From positions 174,706 to 238,705 of the forward strand of contig JACPLC010000001.1 in assembly GCA_016186695.1 (NCBI GenBank): a stretch of 64,000 bases of DNA, written 5' to 3'. The notes below the pieces were generated by a model, which saw only the letters and a list, made by a program, of their open reading frames with translations, did not search any database and was not told the DNA's origin. The position numbers were made by a program, and so were the translations under genes. Below are positions 23,762 through 62,875 of the stretch, piece after piece. Origin of the DNA: Candidatus Kaiserbacteria bacterium. GTDB lineage: Bacteria > Patescibacteriota > Minisyncoccia > Phycocordibacterales > UBA2100. Position 1 is the first letter of the stretch. Each line of letters starts with the position of its first letter.

Positions 23762-23778
23762 CGGGATTGTGCAGATGA

Positions 23779-23816: not shown

Positions 23817-23817
23817 A

Positions 23818-24315: not shown

Positions 24316-24377
24316 TGTCCCAATTTGTATAAGTGGATAACCGCTTGTTAGGTTTCGAGAGTCGGTACAATAAGGGC

Positions 24378-24548
24378 ATGGCAAAGAATGCGAAAAAAGG
24401 GCGCGGCCGAAGGGGCGAGGTAAACAAACGCTCGCAGGTTCTCTCGCCGCGCAACAAGCGCTGGACCAAGGTCAATAATAAAACCGGCCGATTCATGGAT
24501 CAGATGAAGCGAATGGGCCGGGCTTTCAAAGGCGTGCGGATGAAGTAG
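24378..24548 (+). CDS. Small very basic protein (56 aa), hypothetical
   Basis: The ORF track starts at 24333; internal ATG at 24378 (MAKNAKKGRGRRGEVNKRSQVLSPRNKRWTKVNNKTGRFMDQMKRMGRAFKGVRMK) preferred. About 40% K/R, like a ribosomal or nucleic-acid-binding protein, but no family recognised. Confidence 0.35.
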   Translation: MAKNAKKGRGRRGEVNKRSQVLSPRNKRWTKVNNKTGRFMDQMKRMGRAFKGVRMK

Positions 24549-24611
24549 CGCACCTAAGCGGCGTTTTGCCCGCACTTGCTCTGTGCCGGAGTTTGGCATA
24601 GAAAGTATGGG

Positions 24612-25214
24612 ATGAAAGGGTACAGCCTCACGTTTTTTGTCGCGATCGGCATGGTTCTCGGGATCGTTGTGTTCGTTTCGACGATGACGGGCGCGCTCTG
24701 GTATACGCCGGATTCTGAGGTTCCCGCGCCTGCTCTCGAAGGACTCGCGGAGCAGACTGCCTCTGCTGAAGACTATCCTGTCCGTCTCAAGATACCGGCG
24801 ATCGCGGTCGACGCGACAGTTCAGTATGTGGGAGTGAATGCGAAGGGCAACATGGCAGCACCCTCAAACTTTACCGACGTGGGATGGTACAAGTACGGCA
24901 CCGTGCCCGGTTTTGTGGGGAGCGCCGTGGTGACAGGGCACGTCGACAACGCACTCGCCCTGCCGGGAGTTTTTAAAAATCTCCACGCCTTGAAGGTCGG
25001 CGACGAGATTTATATGGAGAGTAAAGACGGCAGTGAGCTGCGTTTCAGGGTTGCTGAAATTCAAACATATCCCTACACACACGTTCCGCTGAAAACTCTT
25101 TTCTCGCGGCGTGATCTCCCGCGCCTCAACCTCATTACCTGCAAAGGCGCGTGGCTTCAAAGCGAGCGGAGCTACGACGAGCGCCTCGTCGTCTACGCGG
25201 AGCTTGTTTCGTAG
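24612..25214 (+). CDS. Sortase-family transpeptidase
   Basis: N-terminal TM MKGYSLTFFVAIGMVLGIVVFV. Active-site motifs: VVTGHVD (His) and LNLITCKG (TLxTC Cys). The ORF track starts at 24576; Met 24612 is a plausible start. Confidence 0.7.
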   Translation: MKGYSLTFFVAIGMVLGIVVFVSTMTGALWYTPDSEVPAPALEGLAEQTASAEDYPVRLKIPAIAVDATVQYVGVNAKGNMAAPSNFTDVGWYKYGTVPGFVGSAVVTGHVDNALALPGVFKNLHALKVGDEIYMESKDGSELRFRVAEIQTYPYTHVPLKTLFSRRDLPRLNLITCKGAWLQSERSYDERLVVYAELVS

Positions 25215-25245
25215 TAGTCGCGCTATACTTTCGAGGACTCTCGAT

Positions 25246-26274
25246 ATGAGTTTCTACCGAGCGTTTGTTCGTCCGACAATAGATCTGTTTTCAGGTTTCG
25301 ATCGGGAACGCGCGCACTACATTGCGCTGTATGCGCTTCGCTCGTACGGCACTCTTTTTCGATTTGGCGGTGTTCGCAACGAGGTGAGAGCGTTTGGCGT
25401 TACGTTCCCGAATCCGGTCGGTGTTGCCGCCGGCTTTGATAAGCACGCGATCGCACTTGCCGGCTTGGAGGCGCTCGGGTTTGGCTTTGTCGAAGTGGGC
25501 ACGGTCGTACCGCTGCCGCAGGAGGGGAATCCGCGCCCGCGTCTTTTCCGACTTACCGAGGATCGGGCAATCATCAATCGCATGGGATTCAACAGCGAAG
25601 GAGCAGCGGCGCTCGCGAAGCGTCTTTCTGCCCATCGGGTACATCGTATCCCGATCGGCGTGAACATCGGGAAAAACAAGGACACGCCACTCGCGCAGGC
25701 AGCCGATGATTACGAGAAATGTATTGAGAGACTCTACCCACACGCCGATTATTTCACCGTCAACGTGAGCTCGCCGAATACGAAAGACCTTAGACAGCTT
25801 CAGGAGAAACAACAACTCGAAACACTACTTGCGCGCGTCCAAAGGAAAATACATGAATGTGCGCAAGGCGCAAAAATAAAGCCGATGCTCCTCAAGATCG
25901 CGCCGGATCTCTCGCAGAGCGAACAGGACGACATCCTCTCGGTCGCGGCATCCCGCGTGCAGGGACTCGTGATCTGCAATACGACGGTTGCGCGGCCGCC
26001 ATCTCTCCGCTCTCGGCATCGGGCGGAAACCGGAGGCTTGAGCGGGAAGCCTCTGCAAGCGCGCGCTCTTGAGCTCGTGCGGTACGTGCACACGCGGTTG
26101 CCCACCATGCCCATCATCGGAGTCGGAGGCATTCTTTCGCCTGACGATGCGCTGCGCATGTTCGATGCCGGCGCGTCGCTCGTTCAGCTCTACACCGGTC
26201 TTATTTTTGAGGGTCCGTTCCTTCCGTATCGCATCAATCGCGCACTCGCGGCGCGCGCGAGCCGCTCGAATTGA
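25246..26274 (+). CDS. pyrD: Dihydroorotate dehydrogenase (quinone), class 2
   Basis: FPNPVGVAAGFDKHA, GFGFVEVGTVVP, GVNIGKNK and the class 2 catalytic-Ser motif VNVSSPNT. The ORF track starts at 25111, overlapping the sortase; internal Met 25246 (MSFYRAF...) gives a canonical length. Confidence 0.8.
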   Translation: MSFYRAFVRPTIDLFSGFDRERAHYIALYALRSYGTLFRFGGVRNEVRAFGVTFPNPVGVAAGFDKHAIALAGLEALGFGFVEVGTVVPLPQEGNPRPRLFRLTEDRAIINRMGFNSEGAAALAKRLSAHRVHRIPIGVNIGKNKDTPLAQAADDYEKCIERLYPHADYFTVNVSSPNTKDLRQLQEKQQLETLLARVQRKIHECAQGAKIKPMLLKIAPDLSQSEQDDILSVAASRVQGLVICNTTVARPPSLRSRHRAETGGLSGKPLQARALELVRYVHTRLPTMPIIGVGGILSPDDALRMFDAGASLVQLYTGLIFEGPFLPYRINRALAARASRSN

Positions 26275-26286
26275 TATACTGCCGGA

Positions 26287-27357
26287 ATGCTCCATGCGCC
26301 GTTCTACGATCCAAGCAAAACGTACTACGAGAATTGGGAAGAGGGGCCGTTCGGTGATTTTCGAGACGGCGTGAAGGTGCCTCAAAGTGCGCCGCGGTTT
26401 GATTTCCTCGGTCAAAAGATTTCGTATCCGATCGGAATTCCGGCGGGACCGCTTTTGAACAGCCGATTCGTCAAGGCGGCCTTCGACAAAGGTTTCGATG
26501 TCGTCGTTTACAAAACGGTGCGGACGCGTGAATATCGCGCGCATCCGTGGCCAAATATCTTGGGCGTACAGCTCGAAGGAGATCTCACGATCGAGCGCGC
26601 GAAAGAGCCCGTCGTCGTAAAGAACGAATATAAAGAGCCGCTTTCCATCACGAATTCGTTCGGTGTGCCATCGTATCCGCCCGAGGTGTGGAAGGACGAT
26701 CTTACAGAAGCGATCAGCTATGCAAAAGACGGGCAGCTCGTCATCGGAAGCTTCGAAGGGACATCGTGGGAGGGCACATCTGCAGACGGGTACATCGACG
26801 ATTGGGCAGAGGTTGCAGAGATGGTCGTTGCCCGCGGCGCGAAGGTCATTGAGGGAGATTTTTCTTGTCCAAATGAGGGCGGCGCAGGATTGCTTTGCTT
26901 CGACGTGCCGAAAATGAAATTGATAGCTGCGCGCATCAGAGAGCGGATCGGTAGCGTGCCGCTCCTCGCGAAGCTTGCATACTTCGAAGATTCCGCGCTT
27001 CGCGAGCTCGTACAGGAATTGGGCGATCTTGTCGACGGCTACTGTGCGATAAACACTATCTCCGCAGTTGTTGTGAATCCGGATGGAACACAGGCATTGC
27101 CGGGGCAAATGCGAAAGAGGAGCGGCATCTGCGGAACGGCGATCAAGTGGGGCGGCCTCGACATGGTTCGAAGGCTACGCTCGCTCCGCGAGGAGCTTGG
27201 TATGAACTATGCAATCGTAGGCGTCGGCGGTGTCATGGCCCCGAAGGATTTCAAAGAATACCGCGATTCTGGCGCCGATGTCGTTATGAGCGCGACCGGC
27301 GCAATGTGGAACCCCTACCTCGCAAAGGAGATCAAGGAAGCGTATCCAGACGCATAG
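26287..27357 (+). CDS. Class-1-type dihydroorotate/ dihydropyrimidine dehydrogenase-family TIM-barrel flavoenzyme (paralog of pyrD)
   Basis: IGIPAGPLLNS, GFDVVVYKTVRT and the catalytic-Cys motif GDFSCPNEGG (class 1 N-x-SCPN). 356 aa, 12 bp downstream of pyrD. Confidence 0.6.
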   Translation: MLHAPFYDPSKTYYENWEEGPFGDFRDGVKVPQSAPRFDFLGQKISYPIGIPAGPLLNSRFVKAAFDKGFDVVVYKTVRTREYRAHPWPNILGVQLEGDLTIERAKEPVVVKNEYKEPLSITNSFGVPSYPPEVWKDDLTEAISYAKDGQLVIGSFEGTSWEGTSADGYIDDWAEVAEMVVARGAKVIEGDFSCPNEGGAGLLCFDVPKMKLIAARIRERIGSVPLLAKLAYFEDSALRELVQELGDLVDGYCAINTISAVVVNPDGTQALPGQMRKRSGICGTAIKWGGLDMVRRLRSLREELGMNYAIVGVGGVMAPKDFKEYRDSGADVVMSATGAMWNPYLAKEIKEAYPDA

Positions 27358-27412
27358 TCTCTGATCCGGTATCTGAAGTTTTTGCAACAAATGTGCTACA
27401 TTGTGCCTCTAA

Positions 27413-29245
27413 TTGGCTATGTGCGGAATATTTGCATACACGGGGAAGGGGACGAAAGATGCGGGAAAGGTGCTTTTGCATGGCTTGACCGCTCTTGAGT
27501 ATCGCGGCTACGACTCTGCGGGAATTTATACGCCTGAAAGCGGAAGTATAAAAACGCCGGGAGCGGTTGCCGAGCTCAAGAAAAAAGTCCCGAAAAAGTT
27601 CAATGGAAAAAGCGGCATCGCGCACCTTCGATGGGCGACGCATGGCGAGCCGACGAAAATAAATGCGCATCCGCATTCCGATTGTCAGGGCGAGCTCTGG
27701 ATCGTACACAATGGCATCATCGAAAATTTCAAGGAGCTGAAGGAAAAGCTTGTGAAAGCGGGGCATACATTCGTATCGGAGTCCGACACGGAAGTCTTCG
27801 CGCATCTTGTCGAGGAACATATGAAGAAAACAAAAGACTTCGAAAAAGCTGCCATTGCCGCGCTCAAAGAGATCCGCGGCACATACGGCATGGCGATTCA
27901 GTACAAGGGTGAGCCTGAGAAACTGATTGCGGCGCGCATGGGCTCCCCGATAGTGCTCGGCGTGGGCAAGCATGAGCATTTCATCGCCTCGGATGCTTCA
28001 CCGATCCTTCCCCATACGAAAAAGGTTGTATTTCTTGAAGACGGAGAGATCGCCGTCATTACACCCGAGACACACACGGTCTACAAACTCGAAGGAAGCC
28101 GTGTCACACGCGCTCCGGAGGAAATTGAGTGGAGTGCGGAAGAGGCACAGAAAGGCGGACACGAGCACTTCATGCTGAAGGAAATCATGGAGGGTGCCGA
28201 AGTAATCGAGAACACATTGCGCGGCCGCCTGATTCCGGAAAAAGGGCTCGCGAAGCTCGGAGGCTTGGAGGGTGTCACGAAGAAATTGGCGAAAATAGAT
28301 CGCATCATCATCGTAGCCTGTGGCACCGCCTACTATGCCGGCTTGGTGGGCGAGTACATGCTCGAGGAACACGCGGGGATCCCTGTTGAGGTTGAGCTTG
28401 GGAGTGAATTCCGCTACCGGAAACCTGTTATCAATGAGAAGACGATCGTGCTTGCGATTTCGCAATCCGGAGAAACACTGGACACACTTGAGGCGATACG
28501 AGAGGGGAAGCGACGTGGGGCGCTCACACTCGGTATCGTGAACACCGTGGGCTCCACTATCGCGCGCGAAACAGACGCCGGCGTCTACAACCACGCCGGT
28601 CCCGAAATCGGGGTTGCTTCCACCAAGGCGTTCGTTTCCCAGCTCGTCGCGCTTGCGCTTCTCACCATCTTTTTGGGAAGACAGCGGGGTATGTCTCTCG
28701 TGGAGGGAAAGAAAATCGCAAAGGAGCTGAAAGCGCTTCCTGCAAAGGTCCAGAAGATATTTGAAGAGAAAGGGGCGATCGAGAAACTGGCTCGCAAATA
28801 TTCGGGAGCGAGAGATTTTCTCTTTATCGGACGCAAGTATAGTTATCCGGTTGCTTTTGAAGGCGCGTTGAAGTTGAAAGAAATCTCATACATTCATGCG
28901 GAAGGATGCGGGGCGGGGGAAATGAAGCACGGTCCTTTGGCGATGATAGACGAAAAATTCCCTACAGTGGCGCTCGCACCCTCGGATTCTGTGTACGAGA
29001 AAGTATTCTCTGCGATCCAGCAGATAAAGGCGCGCAGGGGTCCGGTGATCGCGCTCGCAACGGAGGGAAACAGGGAAGTTGAAAAGATAGCCGACGACGT
29101 CCTGTATATTCCTGAAACACTCGAGATGCTCACGCCAATCCTTTCCGTGATCCCACTCCAGCTCTTCGCCTACTACTTCGCGCGCAACAAAGGCTACAAC
29201 GTCGACCGCCCTAGAAATCTTGCTAAATCAGTAACGGTTGAGTAA
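27413..29245 (+). CDS. glmS: Glutamine--fructose-6-phosphate aminotransferase (isomerising)
   Basis: N-terminal MCGIFAY (Cys2 nucleophile). Ntn glutaminase domain followed by two SIS domains. 610 aa, canonical. Confidence 0.9.
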   Translation: MAMCGIFAYTGKGTKDAGKVLLHGLTALEYRGYDSAGIYTPESGSIKTPGAVAELKKKVPKKFNGKSGIAHLRWATHGEPTKINAHPHSDCQGELWIVHNGIIENFKELKEKLVKAGHTFVSESDTEVFAHLVEEHMKKTKDFEKAAIAALKEIRGTYGMAIQYKGEPEKLIAARMGSPIVLGVGKHEHFIASDASPILPHTKKVVFLEDGEIAVITPETHTVYKLEGSRVTRAPEEIEWSAEEAQKGGHEHFMLKEIMEGAEVIENTLRGRLIPEKGLAKLGGLEGVTKKLAKIDRIIIVACGTAYYAGLVGEYMLEEHAGIPVEVELGSEFRYRKPVINEKTIVLAISQSGETLDTLEAIREGKRRGALTLGIVNTVGSTIARETDAGVYNHAGPEIGVASTKAFVSQLVALALLTIFLGRQRGMSLVEGKKIAKELKALPAKVQKIFEEKGAIEKLARKYSGARDFLFIGRKYSYPVAFEGALKLKEISYIHAEGCGAGEMKHGPLAMIDEKFPTVALAPSDSVYEKVFSAIQQIKARRGPVIALATEGNREVEKIADDVLYIPETLEMLTPILSVIPLQLFAYYFARNKGYNVDRPRNLAKSVTVE

Positions 29246-50345: not shown

Positions 50346-50909
50346 ATGACGACGACAGGGTGGATTATTTTTGGGATCGTGGCGGTGGGTGTGCTCTGGG
50401 TCATCTGGGCATACAATCGTTTCGTACAGCTTACCAATCGCTCGGAGGAGGCATGGTCTGACATCGACGTGCAGCTGAAGCGCCGCTACGACCTCATTCC
50501 AAATATCGTCGAGACGGTGAAAGGCTACATGCAGCACGAGGCGGGAACGCTCCAGAAGGTGACTGATGCCCGCACAAAGGCAATGGGTGCGCAGAGTGTC
50601 GGCGAGCACGCAGCCGCCGAGAACATGCTCACGGGTGCGCTGAAGACCCTGTTTGCGGTCGCAGAAAATTATCCCAACCTGAAGGCGAACGAGAACTTCG
50701 TAGAGCTCCAGCGAGAGCTTTCGGATACCGAGAACAAAATTCAGGCGGCACGTCGCTTCTACAACAGCGTCGTGATTGATCTGCAAAACGCACTCGAACA
50801 ATTTCCCACGAATCTCATCGGCAATACGTTTGGCTTCAAGACGCGCGAATTCTTCCAGCTCGAGGCAGGGGAGGAGGCTGCGCGCCAGCCGGTCAAGGTT
50901 AGTTTCTAG
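50346..50909 (+). CDS. lemA: LemA family membrane protein
   Basis: N-terminal TM GWIIFGIVAVGVLWVIWAYNRF, then the LemA helical signature (WSDIDVQLKRRYDLIPNIVETVKGYMQHE). Confidence 0.8.
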   Translation: MTTTGWIIFGIVAVGVLWVIWAYNRFVQLTNRSEEAWSDIDVQLKRRYDLIPNIVETVKGYMQHEAGTLQKVTDARTKAMGAQSVGEHAAAENMLTGALKTLFAVAENYPNLKANENFVELQRELSDTENKIQAARRFYNSVVIDLQNALEQFPTNLIGNTFGFKTREFFQLEAGEEAARQPVKVSF

Positions 50910-51501
50910 TAAGTCTCTTCGGGAGCGGGGGTGGATCAGCGTAGAACGTGTGTTTGCCAACCTCGCCCACGCGGACCAATGAGCGGAACATTGCTTTCGT
51001 CTTTTCACTCATGTGCGGATGAGGAGTCATCGCAAACTCATCCCAATCGGTGCGCTTATAGTAGTACGTACGTATCGGGATGCCAGTCAGCTTCGAAAAT
51101 TCTTGCACTACGTACGCAGGATCTTTTCCCTTAATGCGGCGGGCAAATATTGCCTTGAGTTCCGCGAGATCGTGCAACTCTTTTTGTGTGAGCGGAGGTG
51201 GCTCCTTAGTCCAAGAGAACTGATTCTTTGCAAACACCACTGCCGGAATTGTTGAACCGAATCGCTTCGAGAGAAGGCGCGCGAGCGTTACTTGGGCAAC
51301 CGCGAGCTGCCCTTTGGGCGATTCGCTGCGAGCCTCATAAAAAACATTCTCAGCGAGTACGTCGGTATCGAGAAAGGAGAGGTTTTCAGATTGCGCCTGC
51401 GGGGCCGATAGCGATCTGATGCTGATAGATTGTGCCGCTCCCTCACTTGGGGCGGCGCTCAGCGCTGCCGCTGTAAGCGCGATGCGCGCTCCTTTTTTCA
51501 T
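50899..51501 (-). CDS. SleB-family cell-wall hydrolase (Hydrolase_2 domain), secreted
   Basis: The ORF track gives a 400-aa ORF, 50899..52101, whose first 200 aa run antisense to htpX. Start reassigned to Met201 at 51501 (MKKGARIALTAAALSAAPSEGAAQS, a signal peptide). The domain reads ENVFYEARSESPKGQLAVAQVTLARL...GSTIPAVVFAKNQFSWT, the SleB/CwlJ pattern. Confidence 0.65.
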   Translation of the reverse strand: MKKGARIALTAAALSAAPSEGAAQSISIRSLSAPQAQSENLSFLDTDVLAENVFYEARSESPKGQLAVAQVTLARLLSKRFGSTIPAVVFAKNQFSWTKEPPPLTQKELHDLAELKAIFARRIKGKDPAYVVQEFSKLTGIPIRTYYYKRTDWDEFAMTPHPHMSEKTKAMFRSLVRVGEVGKHTFYADPPPLPKRLTRN

Positions 51502-51630
51502 GTCTTCTGCTGTCGGCGGTTTTCCGGATGAGGTCTCGTCAGTGACGAATGCCTTGGCAAGGTCTTTGAGATTCTTCGGACGCTCCGGCTCCATTCTCAT
51601 TTCCACTCGTCCAGTATACCGCGTTGCTTC

Positions 51631-52563
51631 ATGCTGGATTCCGATACTCCTTTCCAGTATCATTGCTTGCCTATGGCTTCTCTCTACACGGAACAAGGAA
51701 AAAACATCCGCCGCACGTGGCTTTTGATGACAGTTTTTCTCGTCATGATCATTGCGATCGGCTACTTCATCGGCTGGTATCTGAATGACCCCTCGATTCT
51801 CTACATCGCTATCGTCTTCTCGCTCTTTATGAATGTCACCGCCTACTGGTTCTCCGACAAGGTAGCGCTTGCCGCGACGGGCGCGAAGGAAGCCGACGAG
51901 CGGCAATATCGCGAGCTGCATCGCGTTCTCGAAAACCTTGCGATTACCGCGGGCCTCCCGAAGCCGCGACTCTACGTGATAGACGATCCTGCACCAAATG
52001 CATTTGCTGCCGGAAGAAATCCGAAGCACGCGGTTGTTGCGGTGACCACCGGCCTTCTTTCGCAGCTCGAACGTTCGGAATTGGAAGGGGTCATCGCGCA
52101 TGAACTCTCACACGTCGGGAATCGCGACATCTTGGTAATGACGGTCGCGGTTGTGCTTGCGGGATTCATCGCGATCATCGCTGACATCTTTCTGCGGGTG
52201 AGCTTCTTCGGGGGCAATAATCGCGAGGGGAGAAATCCGATTCTTGCAATAGCGGGAATTGTTGCCATCATTCTTGCGCCGTTTGCTGCACAGCTCATCC
52301 AGCTTGCAGTCTCACGCAAACGTGAGTTTTTGGCGGATGCTTCCGGCGCGCTCCTCACACGCTATCCCGACGCACTCGCTTCTGCGCTTCAGAAGATAAG
52401 TTCGTACCAAGCGCCGATGCGCCGTGCGAACCATGCGACCGCGCACCTCTTCATCTCAAACCCCTTTGGTGCACACGAAGCAGGAAAATTCATCGCAAGA
52501 ATTTTCTCGACTCACCCGCCGGTAGAGGAACGCATCGCCGCGCTCACGCAGATGCGAGTCTAG
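51631..52563 (+). CDS. htpX: Zinc metalloprotease HtpX (peptidase M48)
   Basis: Four TM helices. VIAHELSHVGNRD (HExxH) with a downstream E. C-terminal FSTHPPVEERIAAL is typical of HtpX. The true start may be Met 51673. Confidence 0.8.
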   Translation: MLDSDTPFQYHCLPMASLYTEQGKNIRRTWLLMTVFLVMIIAIGYFIGWYLNDPSILYIAIVFSLFMNVTAYWFSDKVALAATGAKEADERQYRELHRVLENLAITAGLPKPRLYVIDDPAPNAFAAGRNPKHAVVAVTTGLLSQLERSELEGVIAHELSHVGNRDILVMTVAVVLAGFIAIIADIFLRVSFFGGNNREGRNPILAIAGIVAIILAPFAAQLIQLAVSRKREFLADASGALLTRYPDALASALQKISSYQAPMRRANHATAHLFISNPFGAHEAGKFIARIFSTHPPVEERIAALTQMRV

Positions 52564-53112: not shown

Positions 53113-53197
53113 GGAGGGTTCGCATAGTGGTCTAGTGCGCCGCTTTGGAGAAGCGGTGTGCCGCAAGGCACCGAGAGTTCGAATCTCTCACCCTCCG
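53113..53197 (+). tRNA. tRNA-Ser (anticodon GGA), long variable arm
   Basis: GGAGGGT acceptor stem pairs with ACCCTCC, followed by discriminator G. D-loop AGTGGTCTAGT. Anticodon stem-loop CCGCT-TTGGAGA-AGCGG gives anticodon GGA. A 16-nt variable arm (TGTGCCGCAAGGCACC) and T-arm GAGAGTTCGAATCTCTC. No encoded CCA. The ORF track reports spurious ORFs 53135..53491 and 53145..53474 over it. Confidence 0.8.
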
Positions 53198-53204
53198 CCC
53201 CGAT

Positions 53205-53474
53205 ATGGAAGAACAGATTCAAAATCTAGAAAAAGAAATTGCTGCGCTCAAGGAGCGCAATCGGCGCGTGGAGGGAGACAAGGCGTGGGAGACGAGCTAC
53301 TTCAGGGTGAGCGTGGTAGCTATCATTGTCTACATCGTTGTTGCAATTTTCCTGTATGTCATTGGTGTGCAAAACTTTCTCCTTGCCGCACTCGTGCCAC
53401 CGGTCGGTTATTTTCTCTCAACGCGTTCGCTGCCGGCGATCAAGCGCTGGTGGATAAAAACTTTTTTGCAGTAG
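53205..53474 (+). CDS. Small membrane protein (coiled-coil N-terminus plus two TM helices), hypothetical
   Basis: In-frame internal Met of ORF 53145..53474, chosen to lie just past the tRNA. MEEQIQNLEKEIAALKERNRRVEGDKAW then VSVVAIIVYIVVAIFLYVIGV and LLAALVPPVGYFL. Confidence 0.4.
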   Translation: MEEQIQNLEKEIAALKERNRRVEGDKAWETSYFRVSVVAIIVYIVVAIFLYVIGVQNFLLAALVPPVGYFLSTRSLPAIKRWWIKTFLQ

Positions 53475-53483
53475 TTTCCGTCA

Positions 53484-54461
53484 TCAGTTGACGCCCATTT
53501 TTCTCTTTTTGAGGACAAAGACAATGCTGTCATCGACGGTTCCGAGCGGAAGATCAGTCTTCCATTTGAGGGGTTCTTTCGCGCCGGCTGGCGTATAGGT
53601 AATCGTTCCAGTCTCGTCGTTCATCGTTCCGCCGTTTTCCGTTGCTTCTTTGAGAAGCGCTTTATAATTGTCGAGCACCTGCTGCGTTTTTTCGCCCGTC
53701 GGTTTGTTTGCCGCATTGAGCGCATCGATTGCCTCCCGATAGGTAACCATCGTGCCGCCAGGAGGTAGCTTCTCCGAGGCGGCTTTGAACTCCGCATCCG
53801 TCTTTACTGCGTGTTCCCAGTAATCCTCACGCCGGCTTTTTTCGACCTGCGCTGCGGGCGCGCCTTTCTGGAGCGTGCCTATCGCTCTGAAATCGCCCGA
53901 ATTTTCAAGGATCTCTTTGGCCATCGGGCCCCGGCAAAGCAGAAGGCCCCCCGCTGCGATGTTTCTGCAGAATTTCCATGTTGCTTCCGCACTCTCGTCG
54001 TAGAAAGCGAACATGACGTCTACACGATCGTCCATGAGGTGCGTCTCCGGATCACACTTCTTGGTCGGCACGCCGAGTTTCTCCATTGCGTCGGCTTCCG
54101 CTTGTGTCTCGACGAGTCCGAAGATATCCGCGTTCTTGAAGACGAACTGCGCCTCCACGTGTCGCCCCGGATTCACCACAGCCATCCTTGGTTGCTCCCC
54201 GAATTGCGCGAGCTCGCGCTTGTATTGGACACGAAAATCGTCGAGCAGTTTTACATTGCTCTTGAATATATTGAGATGCGGACCGCTGCCGAGTTTGCGA
54301 ACTGTATCGGGAATAGTTCCAAACTGTTTTTCGAATTCCTGTGTATCTTTATCTAAGTTGTCATTTACGGCATCACGCTCGAATTTCTTGTTGTCGTTCG
54401 CGATTTTGAACTGCGGCTCCGATGCAATGTGAATTTTTTGTTTCCGAAGCGGATCTGCCAT
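53484..54461 (-). CDS. Hypothetical soluble protein (325 aa), no recognised family
   Basis: Long ORF with coding-like composition. Start moved to MADPLRKQK (54461); the track starts at 54497. Lys/Glu-rich, no TM, no motif recognised. Confidence 0.5.
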   Translation of the reverse strand: MADPLRKQKIHIASEPQFKIANDNKKFERDAVNDNLDKDTQEFEKQFGTIPDTVRKLGSGPHLNIFKSNVKLLDDFRVQYKRELAQFGEQPRMAVVNPGRHVEAQFVFKNADIFGLVETQAEADAMEKLGVPTKKCDPETHLMDDRVDVMFAFYDESAEATWKFCRNIAAGGLLLCRGPMAKEILENSGDFRAIGTLQKGAPAAQVEKSRREDYWEHAVKTDAEFKAASEKLPPGGTMVTYREAIDALNAANKPTGEKTQQVLDNYKALLKEATENGGTMNDETGTITYTPAGAKEPLKWKTDLPLGTVDDSIVFVLKKRKMGVN

Positions 54462-54540
54462 GCATAAATTATAGCAGAGAGAAATTTGCATGTGCACAAG
54501 GCCCGCTGGACGGGTCTAATCACTCAGATACCATGTATAC

Positions 54541-54945
54541 ATGATCGAAGTCGAATTCCTGCCCATTTTTTTCGCGGGCGTTGTTTCAGTTGTCATCGGA
54601 TTCATTTGGTATCATCCGAAAGTATTCGGTTCCGCGTGGGTACGACTCACGAATCTTTCACCGGAGGCGGTTGAGAAAGGAAAGAAGCGGATGCCACTGA
54701 TGGCATTCATCGGATTGTTCGCGAGCATGTTTGTGGCGTACGTGATGAATTACTTCGGCATCGCATGGGGTGTTTATGATGTGATAGGTGCGATCGAGCT
54801 CGGCTTTTGGTGTTGGATCGGATTTGTCGCGCCAACGATGCTCGGAATAGTTCTCTGGGAGCAGAAAGCATTCAAGCTCTACCTCATCAATTCGCTCTAT
54901 TGGCTGGTCTCATTCGTCATAATGGCGATCATCCTCGTATTTTGA
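54541..54945 (+). CDS. DUF1761-family membrane protein
   Basis: Four TM helices. The N-terminal LPIFFAGVVSVVIGFIWYHPKVFGSAW matches the DUF1761 signature. Confidence 0.6.
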   Translation: MIEVEFLPIFFAGVVSVVIGFIWYHPKVFGSAWVRLTNLSPEAVEKGKKRMPLMAFIGLFASMFVAYVMNYFGIAWGVYDVIGAIELGFWCWIGFVAPTMLGIVLWEQKAFKLYLINSLYWLVSFVIMAIILVF

Positions 54946-54957
54946 TTTAATAGCGGG

Positions 54958-55437
54958 ATGAAACGAACCATAACGATCGCGCTCATCCTCGCCGCGTGCG
55001 CGTTCCTCATTTCGCTCATATACGTTGAGCTCCCATTCTCTTCTCCGAGCGGCGACTCCGTCGCGAACGAACAGCTGCTGTCAGCTTCATCGACCATCCA
55101 GATAAAGGATCGTACCATCAGGGTCGAGATCGCAGATACTTCCGGCGAGCGGGAGAGGGGACTAAGTGGGAAAGAGGGACTCGCGGAAGATGAAGGGATG
55201 CTTTTTGTTTTTGAAGAAGACGGTCGCCCCGCGTTTTGGATGAAGGACATGCTCTTTGCTATTGACATCCTATGGATTTCCTCCGATGGTGCAATAGTCC
55301 ATATCGAAGAAAATGTCGCGCCGGAAACATATCCGACTGCGTTTGCTCCGAGAAACGAGGCGAGATACGTAGTAGAGCTTCCCGCAGGGTACGTAGCAAA
55401 GTATACTGTGCGACCCGGCGACATTGTGCGACTCTAG
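54958..55437 (+). CDS. DUF192-domain protein (secreted)
   Basis: Signal anchor, then the DUF192 pattern: RVEIADTSGERERGLSGKEGLAEDEGMLFVFEE...FWMKDMLFAIDILWISSDGAIVHI. Confidence 0.7.
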   Translation: MKRTITIALILAACAFLISLIYVELPFSSPSGDSVANEQLLSASSTIQIKDRTIRVEIADTSGERERGLSGKEGLAEDEGMLFVFEEDGRPAFWMKDMLFAIDILWISSDGAIVHIEENVAPETYPTAFAPRNEARYVVELPAGYVAKYTVRPGDIVRL

Positions 55438-55521
55438 GATCCGGCAGGCAGGGTTTTCCACAGCTCGCTGAATAGAAATCTTTGAAAAGGCGGGGGTACA
55501 ATGGACGTCCGTTAAAAACTA

Positions 55522-57780
55522 ATGTCAATGCGCATGACAAAAACGATCAGAGAGCGAGTAGCGAGACCGGGAGCTCAAACAGCACGCGTGAGTATCGTTG
55601 GAGATAGTGCCGCCATGCGCGTATACAAAAAATACCTGCCTCAAATCCAGAAGCGCGATGGCAGGATCGTACCATTCGAGCTTTCAAAGATCGTGAGTGC
55701 CATCGAAAAAGCGATGAAAGCCTCGAACGAAGGCTCGGGAGATGAGGCGATGGTGTTTGCACACAAAGTTGCGAGCGAAATGATGCGCATTGCGAAGACC
55801 TACAAGAACTTTTTGCCCACTGTCGAAGGTTGTCAGGACGAAGTCGAGCGTCAGTTGATGCTGAGCGACTACGTTGCAACCTCGAAATCGTACATTTTGT
55901 ATCGTGCGGAGCGAAGCAAGATCCGCAAAGAGCAGGGCGAGGTACCCGAGCATGTACGAAAGCTTTCTGAGGAGAGCAAAAAGTATTTCAAAAACAATCC
56001 GCTCGGCGAATTTGTATATCTCCGCACCTACGCGCGCTGGATCGAGAGCGAGCAGCGTCGCGAGACGTGGATCGAGACCGTCGATCGCTATGTAAATTTC
56101 ATGCGTGAAAATCTCGGCGACAAACTTAACGTACGGGAGTACGGGCAGGTGCGCGAAGCGATCCTCAAGCAGGAGGTGATGCCCTCGATGCGCGCGATGC
56201 AGTTTTCGGGAGATCCCGCGCGCAAGTGCAACACGTGTTTCTACAACTGCTCGTTCATCGCACCGCGCAAGCTCGAAGATTTTGCGGAGATCATGTACCT
56301 CTCGATGCAAGGGTGCGGTGTCGGCTACGCTGTCGAAAGTTACAACATCCAGCAGCTCCCGCAGATAGAAAAACAGACCGGAGAAAAATTGCCGATGCAT
56401 GTCGTCGCAGACACGAAAGAAGGTTGGTGCGATGCCTTGACTCTCGGTCTCAAGAACTGGTACAGCGGTAAGGACATCGAATTTGATTTTTCGCTCATTC
56501 GTCCCGCAGGCGCGCGCTTGAAGACAATGGGAGGGAAAGCATCGGGGCCGGAGCCGCTCCGCTCGCTGCTTTCGTTTGCACGCGAGCGGATATTGAAGCG
56601 ACAGGGAAGACGCCTCCGCAACATCGATGCGCACGATATCATCTGCAAGGTAGGTGAGTGCGTGGTTGCGGGTGGCGTGCGCCGCACCGCAATGATTAGT
56701 CTCTCGGACTTGGACGATGTCGAGATCCGCGATGCCAAAAAAGGCCAGTTTTTCCTCACCGATCCGTACCGAAGCGTTGCCAATAACTCCGCAGTCTATG
56801 AGACAAAGCCCACGAATGCCGAATTGATGGACGAGTGGGTCGCACTTATGAAGAGCGGTACCGGAGAGCGTGGTATTTTCAACCGCGGAAGCCTTCCCTC
56901 TACGCTACCGAAGCGTCGTCTCGAATATCTTCGCAAAAAGTACGGTAAGAAGAACGGATTCATCGGCCAGCTTGGCACGAATCCCTGCGCGGAGATCATT
57001 CTGCAGTCACACGAGTTTTGCAACCTATCGGAAGTTATCGCGCGGCCGCACGACACTGAAGCGACGCTTTTGAGAAAGACGAAGCTCGCGACACTTCTCG
57101 GTACCTATCAATCAACACTTACCAACTTCCGCTATATTTCGGAAGACTGGAAGAAGAATTGCGAAGCAGAACGGCTTCTCGGTGTTTCCATCACCGGCCA
57201 GTGGGACTCGGGGGCTGTGAGAAATCCTGCCACCTTGCGGAAGATGCGGCAGACCTCGATCAAAACGAACCAGACGTATGCGAAGCGCTTCGGCATTAAT
57301 CCTTCGCACTCGATCACCTGCGTGAAGCCTTCGGGAACCGTCTCGCAGACATTTGATTGCGCTTCGGGCATTCATCCGCGTCACTCGCAATACTATATCC
57401 GCCGCATCAGAATTTCCGCGACCGACTCACTCTACAAGATGATGCGTGATCAGGGCGTGCCGCATCACCCGGAAGTGGGGCAGGTAGCGGGCGAAGCGAA
57501 CACGTACGTCTTGGAATTTCCGGTGAAAGCACCGACAGGCTCTGTGTTTAAAGATGATCTCTCCGCGATCGAACAGCTTGAATATTGGAAAACAGTGAAG
57601 CTGAATTTCACGGAGCACAACCCTTCGGCAACGATTTCTGTAGGTGATGAGGAGTGGGTGCAGGTTGTCGCGTGGCTGTATGAAAACTGGGAGATCATCG
57701 GAGGGCTTTCGTTCCTCCCGAGAACAAACCACGTGTATCGTCTCTCGCCTTATGAAGCGATAGACAAAAAAAACGTATGA
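55522..57780 (+). CDS. nrdJ: Adenosylcobalamin-dependent (class II) ribonucleotide reductase with N-terminal ATP-cone; reading frame appears to continue in +1 to 57901
   Basis: ATP-cone is KRDGRIVPFELSKIVSAIEKAM. The RNR 10-stranded barrel includes NPCAEIILQSHEFCNLSEV (thiyl-radical Cys loop). The called stop at 57778 follows an A8 run (57756..57763). The +1 frame, 57782..57901, encodes QRVARFPQIDFSKLIIYERTDETEQAKELACAGGTCEIV, which looks like the C-terminal redox-active Cys-x-x-Cys tail of class II RNRs. Confidence 0.8.
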   Translation: MSMRMTKTIRERVARPGAQTARVSIVGDSAAMRVYKKYLPQIQKRDGRIVPFELSKIVSAIEKAMKASNEGSGDEAMVFAHKVASEMMRIAKTYKNFLPTVEGCQDEVERQLMLSDYVATSKSYILYRAERSKIRKEQGEVPEHVRKLSEESKKYFKNNPLGEFVYLRTYARWIESEQRRETWIETVDRYVNFMRENLGDKLNVREYGQVREAILKQEVMPSMRAMQFSGDPARKCNTCFYNCSFIAPRKLEDFAEIMYLSMQGCGVGYAVESYNIQQLPQIEKQTGEKLPMHVVADTKEGWCDALTLGLKNWYSGKDIEFDFSLIRPAGARLKTMGGKASGPEPLRSLLSFARERILKRQGRRLRNIDAHDIICKVGECVVAGGVRRTAMISLSDLDDVEIRDAKKGQFFLTDPYRSVANNSAVYETKPTNAELMDEWVALMKSGTGERGIFNRGSLPSTLPKRRLEYLRKKYGKKNGFIGQLGTNPCAEIILQSHEFCNLSEVIARPHDTEATLLRKTKLATLLGTYQSTLTNFRYISEDWKKNCEAERLLGVSITGQWDSGAVRNPATLRKMRQTSIKTNQTYAKRFGINPSHSITCVKPSGTVSQTFDCASGIHPRHSQYYIRRIRISATDSLYKMMRDQGVPHHPEVGQVAGEANTYVLEFPVKAPTGSVFKDDLSAIEQLEYWKTVKLNFTEHNPSATISVGDEEWVQVVAWLYENWEIIGGLSFLPRTNHVYRLSPYEAIDKKNV

Positions 57781-57940
57781 GCAACGGGTCGCGCGTTTCC
57801 CCCAGATCGATTTCTCGAAACTCATCATCTACGAGCGCACCGACGAGACGGAGCAGGCGAAAGAGTTGGCCTGCGCGGGCGGGACGTGCGAAATAGTCTA
57901 GAACAGTAAGTAGAAAGTAGTTAGTAGTCAGTAGAAAAAG

Positions 57941-57980
57941 AAAGCGCCCGACGAACCGAAGCTCGCCGGGAGCTTTCTTG
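57941..57980. terminator. Imperfect GC-rich hairpin between convergent genes (candidate bidirectional terminator)
   Basis: AAAGCGCCCGACGA-accgaagc-TCGCCGGGAGCTTT, with 12 of 14 stem pairs. It lies between the nrdJ end and the minus-strand ORF 57997..58329. Confidence 0.35.
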
Positions 57981-57996
57981 ATTCGTCGGGTTGTTC

Positions 57997-58329
57997 CTAC
58001 CGTTTGTTGACCCTCACCTTCAAGTGTCTGGTCTCGGTGTTCCAATCCGTAATCGTGAATTTACGCCGAGCTTCCTCAGGGCTGTTGATAATCATAAACA
58101 CGCCGGTCGATGCCACCGCAGCTTGGGCAATCAGTCCAAAAAGCGGTTCATCGGCGGGATCGAATGTCAGAGTTCCGCCTTCCTCGATCTCAATCGTGAT
58201 CTTCTTCTGGGGCTCTGGGATTAATCCGCCGACATCAATGCCGAACGGGTTTGCTTTTTTGGGCCACCACATTGCGCTTCCCTTTCTTCTTCGATGAACG
58301 CCGTCGGAACTATACGTTCTATAGACCAC
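57997..58329 (-). CDS. Hypothetical small protein (110 aa)
   Basis: The ORF fills the 450-bp gap between nrdJ and rnpB. Globular-looking composition (…GIDVGGLIPEPQKKITIEIEEGGTLTFDPADEP…). No family recognised. Confidence 0.3.
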   Translation of the reverse strand: MVYRTYSSDGVHRRRKGSAMWWPKKANPFGIDVGGLIPEPQKKITIEIEEGGTLTFDPADEPLFGLIAQAAVASTGVFMIINSPEEARRKFTITDWNTETRHLKVRVNKR

Positions 58330-58352
58330 TTGTCAATTGGAGTGTATATTAC

Positions 58353-58692
58353 ACGTCTGCGTTAGGCAGTCGCTGTGTGCCGCAAGGCGCATAGAGGAAA
58401 GTCCGGACACAGGCTCCTCAAAGGAGCAGCAGGGTAGCGGGTAACGCCCGTCCGCCGCGAGGCGAGAGATGCGAACAGTGACGCCAAGGCTGAAAGGCCA
58501 AGGGCTCCTCCGGGAGTAATCACATCGAAAGGTGTGGGTGCAACGGCAAAACTCTTACTTCTGTGCAAGGCCGTGTCCAGCCGCAATTTTCAATTGAAAT
58601 TGCTGCTGGAAGAGCCGCTTGACCCTGAGAGTAATCGAAGGGCTAGATAGATGATTGTCCTCGACAGAATCCGGCTTAATTACGCAGACAAA
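58353..58692 (+). ncRNA. rnpB: RNase P RNA (bacterial type A)
   Basis: The universally conserved P4 strands are present: GAGGAAAGTCCGGACAC at about 58394..58410 and ACAGAATCCGGCTTA at about 58665..58679. P1 pairing joins ACGTCTGCGT (58353..58362) with ACGCAGAC (58682..58689). A GNRA-rich core (GGTAACGCCC, GCGAGAGATG) lies between. A terminator hairpin follows. Confidence 0.8.
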
Positions 58693-58716
58693 ATCCCCCG
58701 CAAGGGGGATTTTGTA
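58691..58716 (+). terminator. Rho-independent terminator after rnpB
   Basis: AAAATCCCCCGCAAGGGGGATTTTG: a CCCCC-gcaa-GGGGG stem with a T-run. Confidence 0.7.
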
Positions 58717-58717
58717 T

Positions 58718-61012
58718 ATGCTATACTCTTTCTCGATGCAGTATTTTGCCCGCGCAGAATCAGTGGTTCGGTGGTCAGTCTTTCTTCTCTTCCTGCTCGC
58801 TCCATTTTTCTTCATCCCCGTTCCGTGGGTGAGCGTCGTGCAGGCAAAAATGCTTTTGTCGGTCGTTGTTATCACCGTCTGTTTTCTTGCATGGATCGCG
58901 ATGTCTCTCAAAGATTCTGAGATCCGGATCCCGCGAAGCTGGCTCCTCATCGCAGCGCTTTCTATTCCGCTTGCGTATCTCATCTCCGCACTTGTGTCAG
59001 GGCCTTCGTGGAGTTCGCTCATTGGTGAGGGTGGAGGGCAGGATACGGTCGTCGGGTTTGTCATTTGGTACGTGGCGCTCTTTCTTTCGGCAGTCATTCT
59101 CGGCGCACAGGCGAATAGACCGGCTCTTGCGGTTCGACTCCTCATGTTGAGCACCGCTGTCATCATCGTGGTTCAAGCAATGCGCCTTCTTCTTCCCGCG
59201 TTTACGTTTGGTGGGGTGCTATCTCTCCCCGCGACCTCTGTCGTGGGGAGTTGGCACGATCTCGGCATTTATCTTTCTCTCGCGCTTTTCCTTTCGCTTG
59301 CCCTCCTTTCCACCTCAGTATTCGAGGGCGCATGGCGCTACGTCGCACTTGCTGCTCTCGTTGGCGCCGCGGTACTCCTTGTCGTCGTCAACTATTCGGA
59401 TGTATGGCTTGCGCTCGCGGGAGTTAGTCTCTTGTACGCTCTTTTTCGCTTTCGTATGCCACCAGCCGGTGCGCGTTTCGGAGGATACAAACTTTCGCTC
59501 TTGTGGCTTCTCATCGCGCTTCTTGCGGGTGCGATGTATTTCGTAGGACCCGCGCTTCAGCGCGCGCTTCCAGCATCCCTCCAGATCACGCAAGTCGAAG
59601 TGCGGCCCTCTTGGAAAGGCACCTTCGCCATCGGTCGGGAAGTGTTTGCAGAACCGACGCAGATCCTATTTGGCTCGGGTCCCAACACCTTTCCGCGGGA
59701 GTGGGGCCGCTATAAGCCGCTTTCGGTCAACACCACGCAATTCTGGAATACCGATTTTTATTACGGGGTCGGATTTATTCCGACGTCGCTCGTGACGACC
59801 GGTATATTGGGCCTTATCGCATGGATCGCTATGTGCGGAGCTCTTCTCATACGTGTCGTTCGGCTGTTCCGCGAAAGCTCCAGCGCATCACTCCTGCGCG
59901 CCGCACTCGTCTTCTCGGCGGTATTCCTGACCGTCTACCATATTCTCTACGTTCCCGGTCCGGCGCTTTCTCTTCTCACATTCCTCCTCTTTGGTGCCGT
60001 CGTAGCCGAAGAGGTCCTCACCGGCTCGATCTCACGCTCCGTCATATCAGTCTCGTGGGATCTCTGGAAGGGGAGAGCGGCCGCGCTCGCGCTTTCTCTC
60101 GCCGGACTCGTTCTATTTTTTGGCGGTGTGCAGTCGACGCGCGCACTTGTCTCAGACGTGCTCGTGAATCGCGCGATCGTGCAATATCAATCCTCACAAG
60201 ACATCGGTAAAGCATCTCGATCAATCGCACTTTCAATTATCGTATTGCCCGGAAGTGATCGGGCGAACCGCGCCGGCGTCGAGCTCGGCATTTTGCAGCT
60301 TGCCGCTCTTGCGTCGAGCTCGGACGGCAGCTCCGGTGCACAGGCGGAGCTGCAGGGTACGTTGAATGCGACTATTCAGCACGGACTCGCAGCGGTCGCT
60401 ATAGATAGTCGTAACTATCAAAATTGGCTCACACTCGCGCGGCTCTACGGAGAACTCGCGGGTGCAGGGGTAACGGGCGCGGAAGAAGCAGCGCGCGAAG
60501 CGTACAAAGAGGCAGCGTCTGCGAGTCCCACTAATCCACTTTCGTACCTTGGTCTCGCACAGCTCGATATTGTGAAGGGAGACGATGCAAGCGCGCGCAA
60601 AAATCTCGAGACGGCAATCGGGATCAAGCCGGATCTTGCAGCTGCGCACTTCTTGCTCTCGCAGATTTTTGCGCGCGCAAATGCACTTCCCGATGCGAAA
60701 CAACACGCGGAGACAGTTGTACAGATCGCACCGCAGGATGCACTCGGCTGGTATAACCACGGCACTGTCATGTATGCGTTGCAGGACTATGAAAATGCCG
60801 TGCTCTCTTTTGAACACGCGGTCAGCATTGAGAGTAACTACGCGAATGCCCTCTTTCTTCTGGGACTCTCGTATTACCGGCTTGACCGAAGCGATGATGC
60901 ACTGAGGGTCCTACGGGCTGTCGCAGCCACGAACCCAGACGATGCTGCACTGCGCGACACAATAGAGGACATCGAGGCTGGCCGGGATCCATTCGCCCCC
61001 TCGGCGAGGTAG
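58718..61012 (+). CDS. Polytopic membrane protein with O-antigen-ligase/ Wzy-like core and C-terminal TPR repeats
   Basis: The ORF track starts at 58655, inside rnpB. Met 58718 (MLYSFSMQYF...) is used instead. There are about 10-12 TM helices with a large loop, as in the Wzy_C/O-antigen ligase family. The C-terminal 200 aa contain TPR repeats (…NYQNWLTLARLYGELAG…, …ALGWYNHGTVMYALQDYENAVLSFEHAVSIESNYANALFLLGLSYYRLDRSDDALRVL…). Confidence 0.6.
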   Translation: MLYSFSMQYFARAESVVRWSVFLLFLLAPFFFIPVPWVSVVQAKMLLSVVVITVCFLAWIAMSLKDSEIRIPRSWLLIAALSIPLAYLISALVSGPSWSSLIGEGGGQDTVVGFVIWYVALFLSAVILGAQANRPALAVRLLMLSTAVIIVVQAMRLLLPAFTFGGVLSLPATSVVGSWHDLGIYLSLALFLSLALLSTSVFEGAWRYVALAALVGAAVLLVVVNYSDVWLALAGVSLLYALFRFRMPPAGARFGGYKLSLLWLLIALLAGAMYFVGPALQRALPASLQITQVEVRPSWKGTFAIGREVFAEPTQILFGSGPNTFPREWGRYKPLSVNTTQFWNTDFYYGVGFIPTSLVTTGILGLIAWIAMCGALLIRVVRLFRESSSASLLRAALVFSAVFLTVYHILYVPGPALSLLTFLLFGAVVAEEVLTGSISRSVISVSWDLWKGRAAALALSLAGLVLFFGGVQSTRALVSDVLVNRAIVQYQSSQDIGKASRSIALSIIVLPGSDRANRAGVELGILQLAALASSSDGSSGAQAELQGTLNATIQHGLAAVAIDSRNYQNWLTLARLYGELAGAGVTGAEEAAREAYKEAASASPTNPLSYLGLAQLDIVKGDDASARKNLETAIGIKPDLAAAHFLLSQIFARANALPDAKQHAETVVQIAPQDALGWYNHGTVMYALQDYENAVLSFEHAVSIESNYANALFLLGLSYYRLDRSDDALRVLRAVAATNPDDAALRDTIEDIEAGRDPFAPSAR

Positions 61013-61015
61013 CGC

Positions 61016-62713
61016 ATGATGCGGGAAACCTTGAGATTTCTCGCCTCACCGGTGCGGGGTCTGCAGGCAGCGGTGTACGTATTAGCTGCCTCGGCACTTC
61101 TCTCCTCTCTTCTTGCGCTTGTTCGCGACCGCTTGTTTGCAGGGAGCTTTGGTGCCGGAGCGGAGCTCGACATCTATTACGCTGCATTCCGTATACCGGA
61201 TTTTCTTTTTGTGATGACCGGCGCACTCGTTTCCGTCTATATACTGATTCCCGAACTTTTGCGGCGCTCATCTGAAAAGCAAAAGGATTACATCGACACG
61301 GTGCTCTTGGGGTTCAGCGCTCTTGCGGTTGTTCTCTCTTCAATCGCGGCGCTCCTTGCGCCCTCGCTCTTAGTGATGCTCTTTCCGGATTTTGCCGCAC
61401 GCGGCTATCTACCGACCTTGACCGTGCTCACCCGCATCATGCTCTTACAACCGATCCTTTTGGGACTCTCCAACATTCTCGCGAGTATCACGCAGGCGCG
61501 TGGGCGCTACATCTTGTACGCGGCATCGCCGCTCCTTTACAACCTCGGCATTATCTTCGGACTTCTCGCGCTCTACCCATACTTCGGGATAGCTGGTCTC
61601 GCGTGGGGAGTGGTGCTCGGTGCCGCACTTCACCTCGGAGTACAGCTTCCCTCGATTGTAGGCGAGGGGTTTTTCCGCTCACTTCCTAGCTTTAGCGAGC
61701 GCTCTGCGCTATTGCAGACAGCAGCAATATCGATTCCGCGTGCGCTCACACTCTCGATGAACCAGATCACGTTTACCGGATTGACTGCTCTTGCTTCCGG
61801 ACTTTCCACAGGGTCGATCGCAGTATATATCTTCGGATTCAATCTCATGAGTGTTCCTCTTTCTGTCATCGGCGCTTCTTACTCTGTTGCTGCCTTTCCG
61901 ACGCTCGCCTCTGCGCTCGCGGAAGGCCGCGCGCGGGAATTCATCGAGTATGTATCGACCGCTGCCCGCTACATACTCTTCTGGTCGCTTCCCGTCATAG
62001 GGCTCATCATTGTGCTTCGCGCACATATTGTGCGTGTGATCCTCGGGAGCGGCTCCTTCGACTGGACCGATACACGTCTCACTGCTGCGGTCTTCGCACT
62101 TCTCTCCATATCGCTTGCAGCGCAAGCGCTTATGCTCCTCCTCGCACGCGCCTATTACGCCGCGGGCCGAACATTCGTACCTTTTTTTATCGCGGTAGCG
62201 TCGACGGCTCTCACGATGTACCTCGCAATCCTTTTCACGGGTCAGCTTGCAGAAACAAGTGTGCTTCGCTTTGTCGAGCGCGTGATGCGTCTCGAAGATG
62301 TTTCAGGAAGCGCGATCGTGGCTCTGCCGATCGCGTTTTCGCTAGTCTCCATCGGCGGAGTCGTCGCGCTTATCGTTCATTTCGAACAGCGTTTCGGCGG
62401 ATTCTTCTCCCTGATAAAAGTTTCTCTCATGCAGGCTGTGCTTGCCGGCATTGGCGCGGCACTTGCCGCCTATGCCACGCTTGTCGTTGTGGGACCTCTG
62501 ACACTTTCCTCAACGCTCGCGTCAGTTTTTATCCGGGGACTTGCTGGGGGGATTGCAGGGGTTTGTGCGGCCGTGCTCGTGTATGCCATCTTGAGGAATC
62601 GTGAGTATGAGGAAACAGTTTCCGCAATTCATGGGAAACTCTGGAAGTTGCCACTTCCAAAAGCCCAGCCCATCGCATCAGCTGAGGAGATTAGTGCTTC
62701 AAGTCCCCAATAG
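61016..62713 (+). CDS. murJ: Lipid II flippase MurJ (MviN)
   Basis: LVRDRLFAGSFGAGAELDIYYAAFRIPDFLFVM matches the MurJ N-terminal signature. 14 TM helices, 565 aa. Confidence 0.8.
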   Translation: MMRETLRFLASPVRGLQAAVYVLAASALLSSLLALVRDRLFAGSFGAGAELDIYYAAFRIPDFLFVMTGALVSVYILIPELLRRSSEKQKDYIDTVLLGFSALAVVLSSIAALLAPSLLVMLFPDFAARGYLPTLTVLTRIMLLQPILLGLSNILASITQARGRYILYAASPLLYNLGIIFGLLALYPYFGIAGLAWGVVLGAALHLGVQLPSIVGEGFFRSLPSFSERSALLQTAAISIPRALTLSMNQITFTGLTALASGLSTGSIAVYIFGFNLMSVPLSVIGASYSVAAFPTLASALAEGRAREFIEYVSTAARYILFWSLPVIGLIIVLRAHIVRVILGSGSFDWTDTRLTAAVFALLSISLAAQALMLLLARAYYAAGRTFVPFFIAVASTALTMYLAILFTGQLAETSVLRFVERVMRLEDVSGSAIVALPIAFSLVSIGGVVALIVHFEQRFGGFFSLIKVSLMQAVLAGIGAALAAYATLVVVGPLTLSSTLASVFIRGLAGGIAGVCAAVLVYAILRNREYEETVSAIHGKLWKLPLPKAQPIASAEEISASSPQ

Positions 62714-62875
62714 AGGAGGCGCTCGGGGGTATTGCATTGTTCGGGTCGCGTCGTCGCGTGCTCGCGCCGCGCTCCCGCTCGGCCTCATCGGCCTGCGCGA
62801 AGACCCTCACAACGCAATACCCCCTCGCTGGAAAAAAGCGGAACACCTCTTTATTTGCTAGGATAGTGAATCGAT

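Follow-up and report, generated by a model that had tools for sequence, protein, structure and literature searches.

The nrdJ gene of the Candidatus Kaiserbacteria metagenome-assembled genome (MAG) studied here is interrupted near its 3′ end by one surplus adenine, which is very probably confined to a single MAG record (MBI2612437.1) and without any role as a decoding signal. Throughout, the window is the whole stretch of DNA that was analysed (64,000 nucleotides), and positions are counted along it. The Lys-Lys-Thr codons AAA AAA ACG of nrdJ ordinarily form an A7 tract lying 47 codons before the end of the gene, and the one A added in this record throws the final 44 codons (from the Thr codon ACG onwards), together with the CX4C redox-shuttle tail that they encode, out of frame. 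A reading made earlier from the sequence alone had pointed to a frame break near the 3′ end of a class II ribonucleotide reductase (RNR) gene, and this break is real: the ORF stops at 57780, and the +1 frame is open to 57901. Three features define it.

55534..57780, + strand: zero-frame part of nrdJ, for a monomeric class II ribonucleoside-triphosphate reductase whose N terminus carries an ATP-cone; start as in the gene calls of sister contigs; ends ...AIDKKNV before the stop

57766..57773, + strand: A8 homopolymer with a one-base excess in the window sequence, A7 (AAA AAA A-CG, Lys-Lys-Thr) being found in the same population and in relatives

57764..57901, + strand: open +1 frame encoding TKKTYEQRVARFPQIDFSKLIIYERTDETEQAKELACAGGTCEIV up to a stop, the conserved C-terminal tail with a CX4C pair followed by three residues, identified by translation, alignment to RTPR and 117 homologs

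At the break, the window reads ...TAT GAA GCG ATA GAC AAA AAA AAC GTA TGA, where the zero-frame TGA (57778..57780) closes a mechanical ORF of 752 aa (55522..57780), and translation of 57782..57901 in the +1 frame yields QRVARFPQIDFSKLIIYERTDETEQAKELACAGGTCEIV and a stop. Because a +1-frame TAG at 57761..57763 adjoins the 5′ side of the A run, the change of frame is confined to 57764..57777, the only interval over which the zero and +1 frames are jointly open, and this is essentially the run plus a few flanking bases. The sequence-only reading had placed the run at 57756..57763, 10 bases too low. Its expectation that an A7 run would give one continuous protein was borne out, as deleting one A from the A8 restores the conserved junction and tail in a single protein, ...PYEAIDKKTYEQRVARFPQIDFSKL..., reading ...AIDKKTYEQ...ACAGGTCEIV, with a length of 792 aa when counted from 55522 and of 788 aa when the ATG at 55534 is taken as the start. 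The A8 run is statistically ordinary (four A8/T8 runs in the window vs 3.3 expected from shuffles), and the oddity is that it falls just where the frame of a conserved gene is broken. No wider trouble with homopolymers or frameshifts was seen in the window, where the other 16 A/T runs of at least 7 bases lie within intact ORFs or intergenic DNA. Similarly, a Pfam analysis of overlapping same-strand ORF pairs revealed no split genes, with RNase J, a solute-binding protein, CofD and Gmad2 being separate complete genes.

The start of nrdJ has three candidates, namely 55522 (the mechanical ORF), 55534 (MTKTIRE, the gene calls of the sister contigs) and 55615 (MRVYKK, the NCBI protein). The last of these corresponds to MBI2612437.1, a protein of 721 aa from a 258,389-bp contig of a Candidatus Kaiserbacteria bacterium, which is identical to the window ORF from MRVYKK onwards and ends in DKKNV. 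This protein belongs to the cluster of the best homolog hit, and its identity places the window within that MAG record. The only strong solved relative of the restored protein is the Lactobacillus leichmannii RTPR (PDB 1L1L; E = 2.2e-48, three stretches). The alignment reaches the final residues (up to 738), pairs both tail cysteines with C731 and C736, and matches the junction AIDKKTYEQR of the restored protein to PIDKETYEKR. Together with the domains of the homologs, this match upholds the assignment to class II RNRs made in the sequence-only reading and specifies it as the monomeric RTPR type. The close homologs and sister loci carry PF02867, PF17975 and PF21995 (RNR catalytic barrel, class II insertion domain), while the best 120 homologs have the ATP-cone, RNR_Alpha, Ribonuc_red_lgC and class II insertion domains. 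Among NCBIfam families, TIGR02505 (RTPR) scored best by far, at 302.6 bits, which is below its equivalog cut-off of 340.05, and for this reason we treat nrdJ as divergent: judging from its sequence, it is an ATP-cone-bearing branch of the monomeric class II RNRs (NrdJm/RTPR type). Its Lys codons are balanced between AAA (26) and AAG (30).

The sequence-only reading had likened the +1-frame peptide to the Cys-pair C-terminal tail of class II RNRs, and this holds, since the peptide aligns to C731/C736 and is in frame in the sister contigs and in 116 of 117 aligned homologs. The same 116 homologs end in CxxxxCxxx, and the columns of the junction and tail are 90-100% conserved. L. leichmannii mutants at C731/C736, examined by Booker et al. 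in 1994, were reportedly active with DTT and inactive with thioredoxin. A tail-less NrdJ would be expected to escape re-reduction by thioredoxin. In monomeric NrdJ, the C-terminal Cys pair sits on a flexible tail, from which it reduces the disulfide of the active site again, and thioredoxin or glutaredoxin in turn reduces the pair (PMC5704485). Production of the tail in trans from a start of its own was ruled out, as the early +1 frame has no ATG, GTG or TTG. Beyond the tail lies one further element.

57947..57970, strand not assigned: GC-rich hairpin between the stop of the nrdJ tail and a convergent 91-aa ORF, recognized from sequence and folding

This hairpin looks like a terminator and would place the actual 3′ boundary of the nrdJ transcription unit beyond the tail. 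An Rfam scan of 55000..59200 found RNase P RNA alone, and no riboswitch before nrdJ at the gathering threshold.

The case for a private extra base rests above all on sister contigs, that is, per-run Logan assemblies of the same population retrieved by exact look-up of neighbouring small genes. Five of them (L015-L019; runs SRR12113424, -420, -431, -422 and -385) were recovered with the 91-aa ORF downstream of nrdJ (57997..58272, - strand). Over 1,018-2,351 bases within 56181..58655, each is identical to the window, with the sole difference of A7 for A8, and the nrdJ products called in them (144-572 aa, truncated only where the contig stops) read through without a break as far as the stop equivalent to 57901. 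Hence, the population has an undamaged nrdJ, and the additional A belongs to the MAG record alone. When the truncated product was looked up exactly, with the starts giving 752, 748 and 721 aa, it matched no contig on record; that of the ORF at 50899..52101 was likewise without a match. That the SRR runs and the MAG go together with BioProject PRJNA640378 is something that we infer from neighbouring accession numbers and from one paper tying SRR12113421 to PRJNA640378.

Four more sister contigs, each from a different run (L009-L012), match the window over 53169..56190 with a single difference.

55756, + strand: second record-private difference, T in the window vs G in the four sister contigs L009-L012, changing Val75 to Phe in the ATP-cone

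Phe occupies this position in none of the 117 homologs (V in 101, I in 14, L and A in one each). With the contigs L020-L023 included, the sister comparison totals 20,231 bases (16859..27457 and 53169..62800), in which the record differs outside nrdJ at five positions, two of them in the M23 peptidase gene (21269, 21284) and three in murJ (61681, 61684, 61687). All five are third-position changes that leave the amino acid unaltered, and they form two tight clusters, which are genuine haplotype differences and not errors. The MAG represents a slightly different strain, ~99.97% identical to the sister population. Of the private differences, both of those inside nrdJ (2/2) and none of those outside it (0/5) alter a protein (Fisher p ~0.05).

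Among relatives, we analysed the best 120 of thousands of relatives of the restored protein, all of them named ribonucleoside-triphosphate reductase of Candidatus Kaiserbacteria or Parcubacteria, with 80-94% identity and 94-100% query coverage (61% for three intein-bearing ones); the alignment of 117 (742-799 aa) excludes these three. Aligning NrdJ homologs across the junction had been proposed as a check in the sequence-only reading: the restored sequence matches all 117 there, 116 of them with the CxxxxCxxx end, and none of the best 120 homologs is interrupted, all being continuous across the junction. At the nucleotide level, the site reads GAC AAA AAA ACG, with A7, in the closest species (L001, 94% aa identity). 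Every related locus with an A tract here has this length, eight loci in total (L001, L004, L005, L006, L007, L008, L013 and L014). In two other loci, the tract is broken by AAG codons (GAT AAG AAA ACC in L002, GAC AAG AAG ACG in L003). A degenerate pattern that would accept either A7 or A8 had five matches, one in a GTDB species genome and four in JGI metagenome contigs; each has A7 and is in frame, and one of them is a distant low-GC homolog. In sum, A8 at this site was not found outside the window record in sister contigs, relatives, GTDB species genomes or JGI metagenomes.

The three causes put forward in the sequence-only reading fared differently: a sequencing or assembly error and a recent slip mutation both remain, while programmed transcriptional or ribosomal slippage is unsupported, because A7 is present in five assemblies, no homolog is interrupted, the tract-bearing relatives have A7, and the site has no stimulatory element. 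Programmed or selected recoding would require RNA polymerase slippage on A8/T8 (loss of one A) or a +1 tRNA-Lys slip on A_AAA_AAA_A to set the ratio of tail-less to full-length enzyme. The geometry would suit it, as the shift window is restricted to the A run and a +1 slip, or the loss of one A in the mRNA, gives exactly the conserved DKKTYEQ, and bacterial slippage at long A/T runs is documented (PMC5009743). However, a break that is not conserved, with 5/5 sister contigs, the best 120 homologs and 8/8 A-tract loci in frame and with codons containing AAG replacing the tract in L002 and L003, makes this reading very improbable. The run is also 8 bases long, whereas efficient slippage of bacterial RNA polymerase has been described at A/T runs of at least 9 (PMC5009743). 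No stimulatory RNA structure was found 3′ of the run, where the 97 nt downstream fold worse than 198 of 200 shuffles (z = +2.33), nor an SD-like element in the sequence upstream of it, CCTTATGAAGCGATAGAC. The site does not resemble a prfB-type +1 frameshift either, the A-site codon being an ordinary AAC, the stop lying two codons downstream and the upstream SD-like element being absent. Just as hard to credit is a phase-variable contingency locus, in which the A tract would act as an on-off switch for nrdJ in the population. Records of one population do differ in tract length, A7 or A8, but A7 is present in 5/5 other assemblies, the tract is short and is not conserved at the nucleotide level in relatives, and nrdJ encodes a housekeeping enzyme and not a surface or restriction-modification function.

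It is thus between an artefact and a real allele that the origin of the extra A has to be weighed. We favour a local assembly or consensus error, to which we assign about an even chance of being correct, and we lean this way because co-occurring close relatives tangle the metagenome assembly graph in the gene that holds the break. The 2.4-kb nrdJ contains eight Logan contig ends, and the tangle caused by co-occurring relatives shows, for example, in L002, which comes from the same run as L017. The MAGs of the project were obtained from 150-bp Illumina reads by MEGAHIT with IDBA-UD scaffolding, one assembly per filter (PMC7906910). A chimeric assembly with a co-occurring relative was ruled out as the source of A8 or of Phe75, neither variant being found in any relative. 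Quite possible, if on balance somewhat doubtful, is that A8 is real and arose very recently from A7, by replication slippage in the strain of the MAG, producing a tail-less NrdJ that thioredoxin could not recycle. Such an allele would be a young pseudogene or a crippled gene, possibly sustained in part by background slips of RNA polymerase or the ribosome on the A run, and the tail codons, still perfect, imply that the mutation, if real, is recent. In its favour, the record is a distinct haplotype by virtue of its five synonymous SNPs in two clusters over 20.2 kb, an Illumina/MEGAHIT consensus seldom miscounts an 8-base run, the 16 other long A/T runs of the window disrupt no gene, and the sister contig L022 agrees exactly with the record at two A8/T8 runs (20616 and 22355). 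Moreover, a second private and non-conservative change in nrdJ (V75F) would fit relaxed constraint, as would the concentration of protein-altering private differences in this gene (2/2 vs 0/5 elsewhere, Fisher p ~0.05). Against this, RNR is normally essential and its turnover with the physiological reductant depends on the tail Cys pair, so that a null allele should not reach a majority, and five other runs of the same site lack the A8 allele. Relaxed constraint or decay beyond these two changes was not seen in nrdJ: at columns with at least 95% conservation, 6 of its residues are atypical, compared to a median of 3, and 26 of the 117 homologs have at least 6. Finally, A8 may be both real and in the majority in the source sample, with background RNA polymerase slippage or a +1 slip of tRNA-Lys restoring a few percent of full-length NrdJ, a combination that we consider unlikely.

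MBI2612437.1 (721 aa, ending in DKKNV) lacks the catalytically required redox tail only through one extra A, while the population encodes a normal 788-aa enzyme. This protein should accordingly be taken for a full-length NrdJ whose record is wrong or deviant by one base, which is mainly a matter of data quality, and in metabolic inference for the MAG nrdJ should be counted as present. If, instead, A8 were real and dominant, an essential CPR gene would have been caught during its loss or while rescued by slippage, a small but useful case. Should rescue be the true explanation, a CPR episymbiont would be keeping an essential gene in use through adventitious 'corrective' frameshifting, much like the poly(A) rescue of insect endosymbionts.

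Compared with known systems, the restored enzyme shares with the L. leichmannii RTPR (1L1L) its catalytic barrel, its junction motif and its C-terminal CX4C followed by three residues, but it differs in having an N-terminal ATP-cone and in being ~50 aa longer, and its tail is out of frame in the window record only. The break itself superficially resembles the corrective poly(A) slippage of Buchnera and Blochmannia, in that an A run interrupts a gene whose downstream frame is intact, and the host is a symbiont with a small genome. However, in these endosymbionts the tracts are long, the frameshifts persist across lineages and 12-50% of transcripts are corrected (PMC5009743), whereas the nrdJ case consists of A8 only, in one record and at the level of DNA alone. 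A homopolymeric A/T run inside a coding sequence is likewise found in Thermus thermophilus dnaX (a run of 9) and in Shigella type III secretion genes, but those sites are conserved, are needed for the normal ratio of products and have at least 9 bases or a stimulatory context (PMC5009743). The closest parallel is provided by homopolymer-length indels in MAGs, which share with the nrdJ A8 the single-base change, the longest homopolymer class of the region, the restriction to one assembly and the undamaged downstream codons, and from which it shows no material difference. Thus, the nrdJ break belongs to an already known category, that of single-base homopolymer indels in metagenome-assembled genomes.

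In the roughly 20 kb (16859..27457 and 53169..62800) over which the record was compared with the sister contigs, assembled run by run from its own population, only one protein-altering difference was found besides the nrdJ frame break. This is a G-to-T change at 55756, private to the record, by which Val75 in the ATP-cone of NrdJ is replaced by Phe; four sister contigs carry G at this position, and none of the 117 aligned homologs has Phe at NrdJ position 75. The nrdJ gene of the window lacks an intein. Intein and homing-endonuclease domains (PF14890 together with either PF13392 or PF14528) are present in some close Kaiserbacteria NrdJ homologs from outside the window, namely P0012, P0039 and P0055 (1158-1275 aa).

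The assembled genome also departs from the per-run assemblies of its population at third codon positions, where synonymous changes gather in two tight clusters:

21269 and 21284: synonymous cluster in the M23 peptidase gene
61681, 61684 and 61687: synonymous cluster in murJ

Both resemble either small patches of recombination or a haplotype that co-exists, and one sister contig (L021) has an additional SNP at 59918.

On the 3′ side of nrdJ, three features follow one another:

57903..57936, directly 3′ of the nrdJ tail stop: short stop-rich stretch, AACAGTAAGTAGAAAGTAGTTAGTAGTCAGTAG
57947..57970, next after this stretch: GC-rich bidirectional hairpin, terminator-like
58354..58694, + strand: full-length bacterial class A RNase P RNA, scoring 126 bits against RF00010

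The TAA and TAG codons of the first of these fall in all three frames. The RNase P RNA gene sits between nrdJ and the TPR gene and, because of the span that it occupies, the mechanically assigned ORF start at 58655 falls within the RNA gene. The true start of the TPR gene is at about 58718 rather than 58655; it is there that the sister contigs call a 764-aa product.

Elsewhere in the window, the following ORFs were recorded:

18937..20544, + strand: N6/N4 DNA methyltransferase gene with a MutH-family endonuclease gene immediately after it (both called by Pfam on L022, a sister contig of identical sequence)
6201..13262, + strand: very large ORF, 2353 aa
45550..50268, + strand: very large ORF, 1572 aa

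The methyltransferase and the MutH-family endonuclease may constitute a restriction-modification pair. At 14043..16166, two long ORFs of 648 aa (− strand) and 577 aa (+ strand) overlap on opposite strands, neither of them with a match in Pfam, so that either could be the gene. As for the two very large ORFs, giant proteins are typically encoded by CPR bacteria, the group to which Candidatus Kaiserbacteria belongs.
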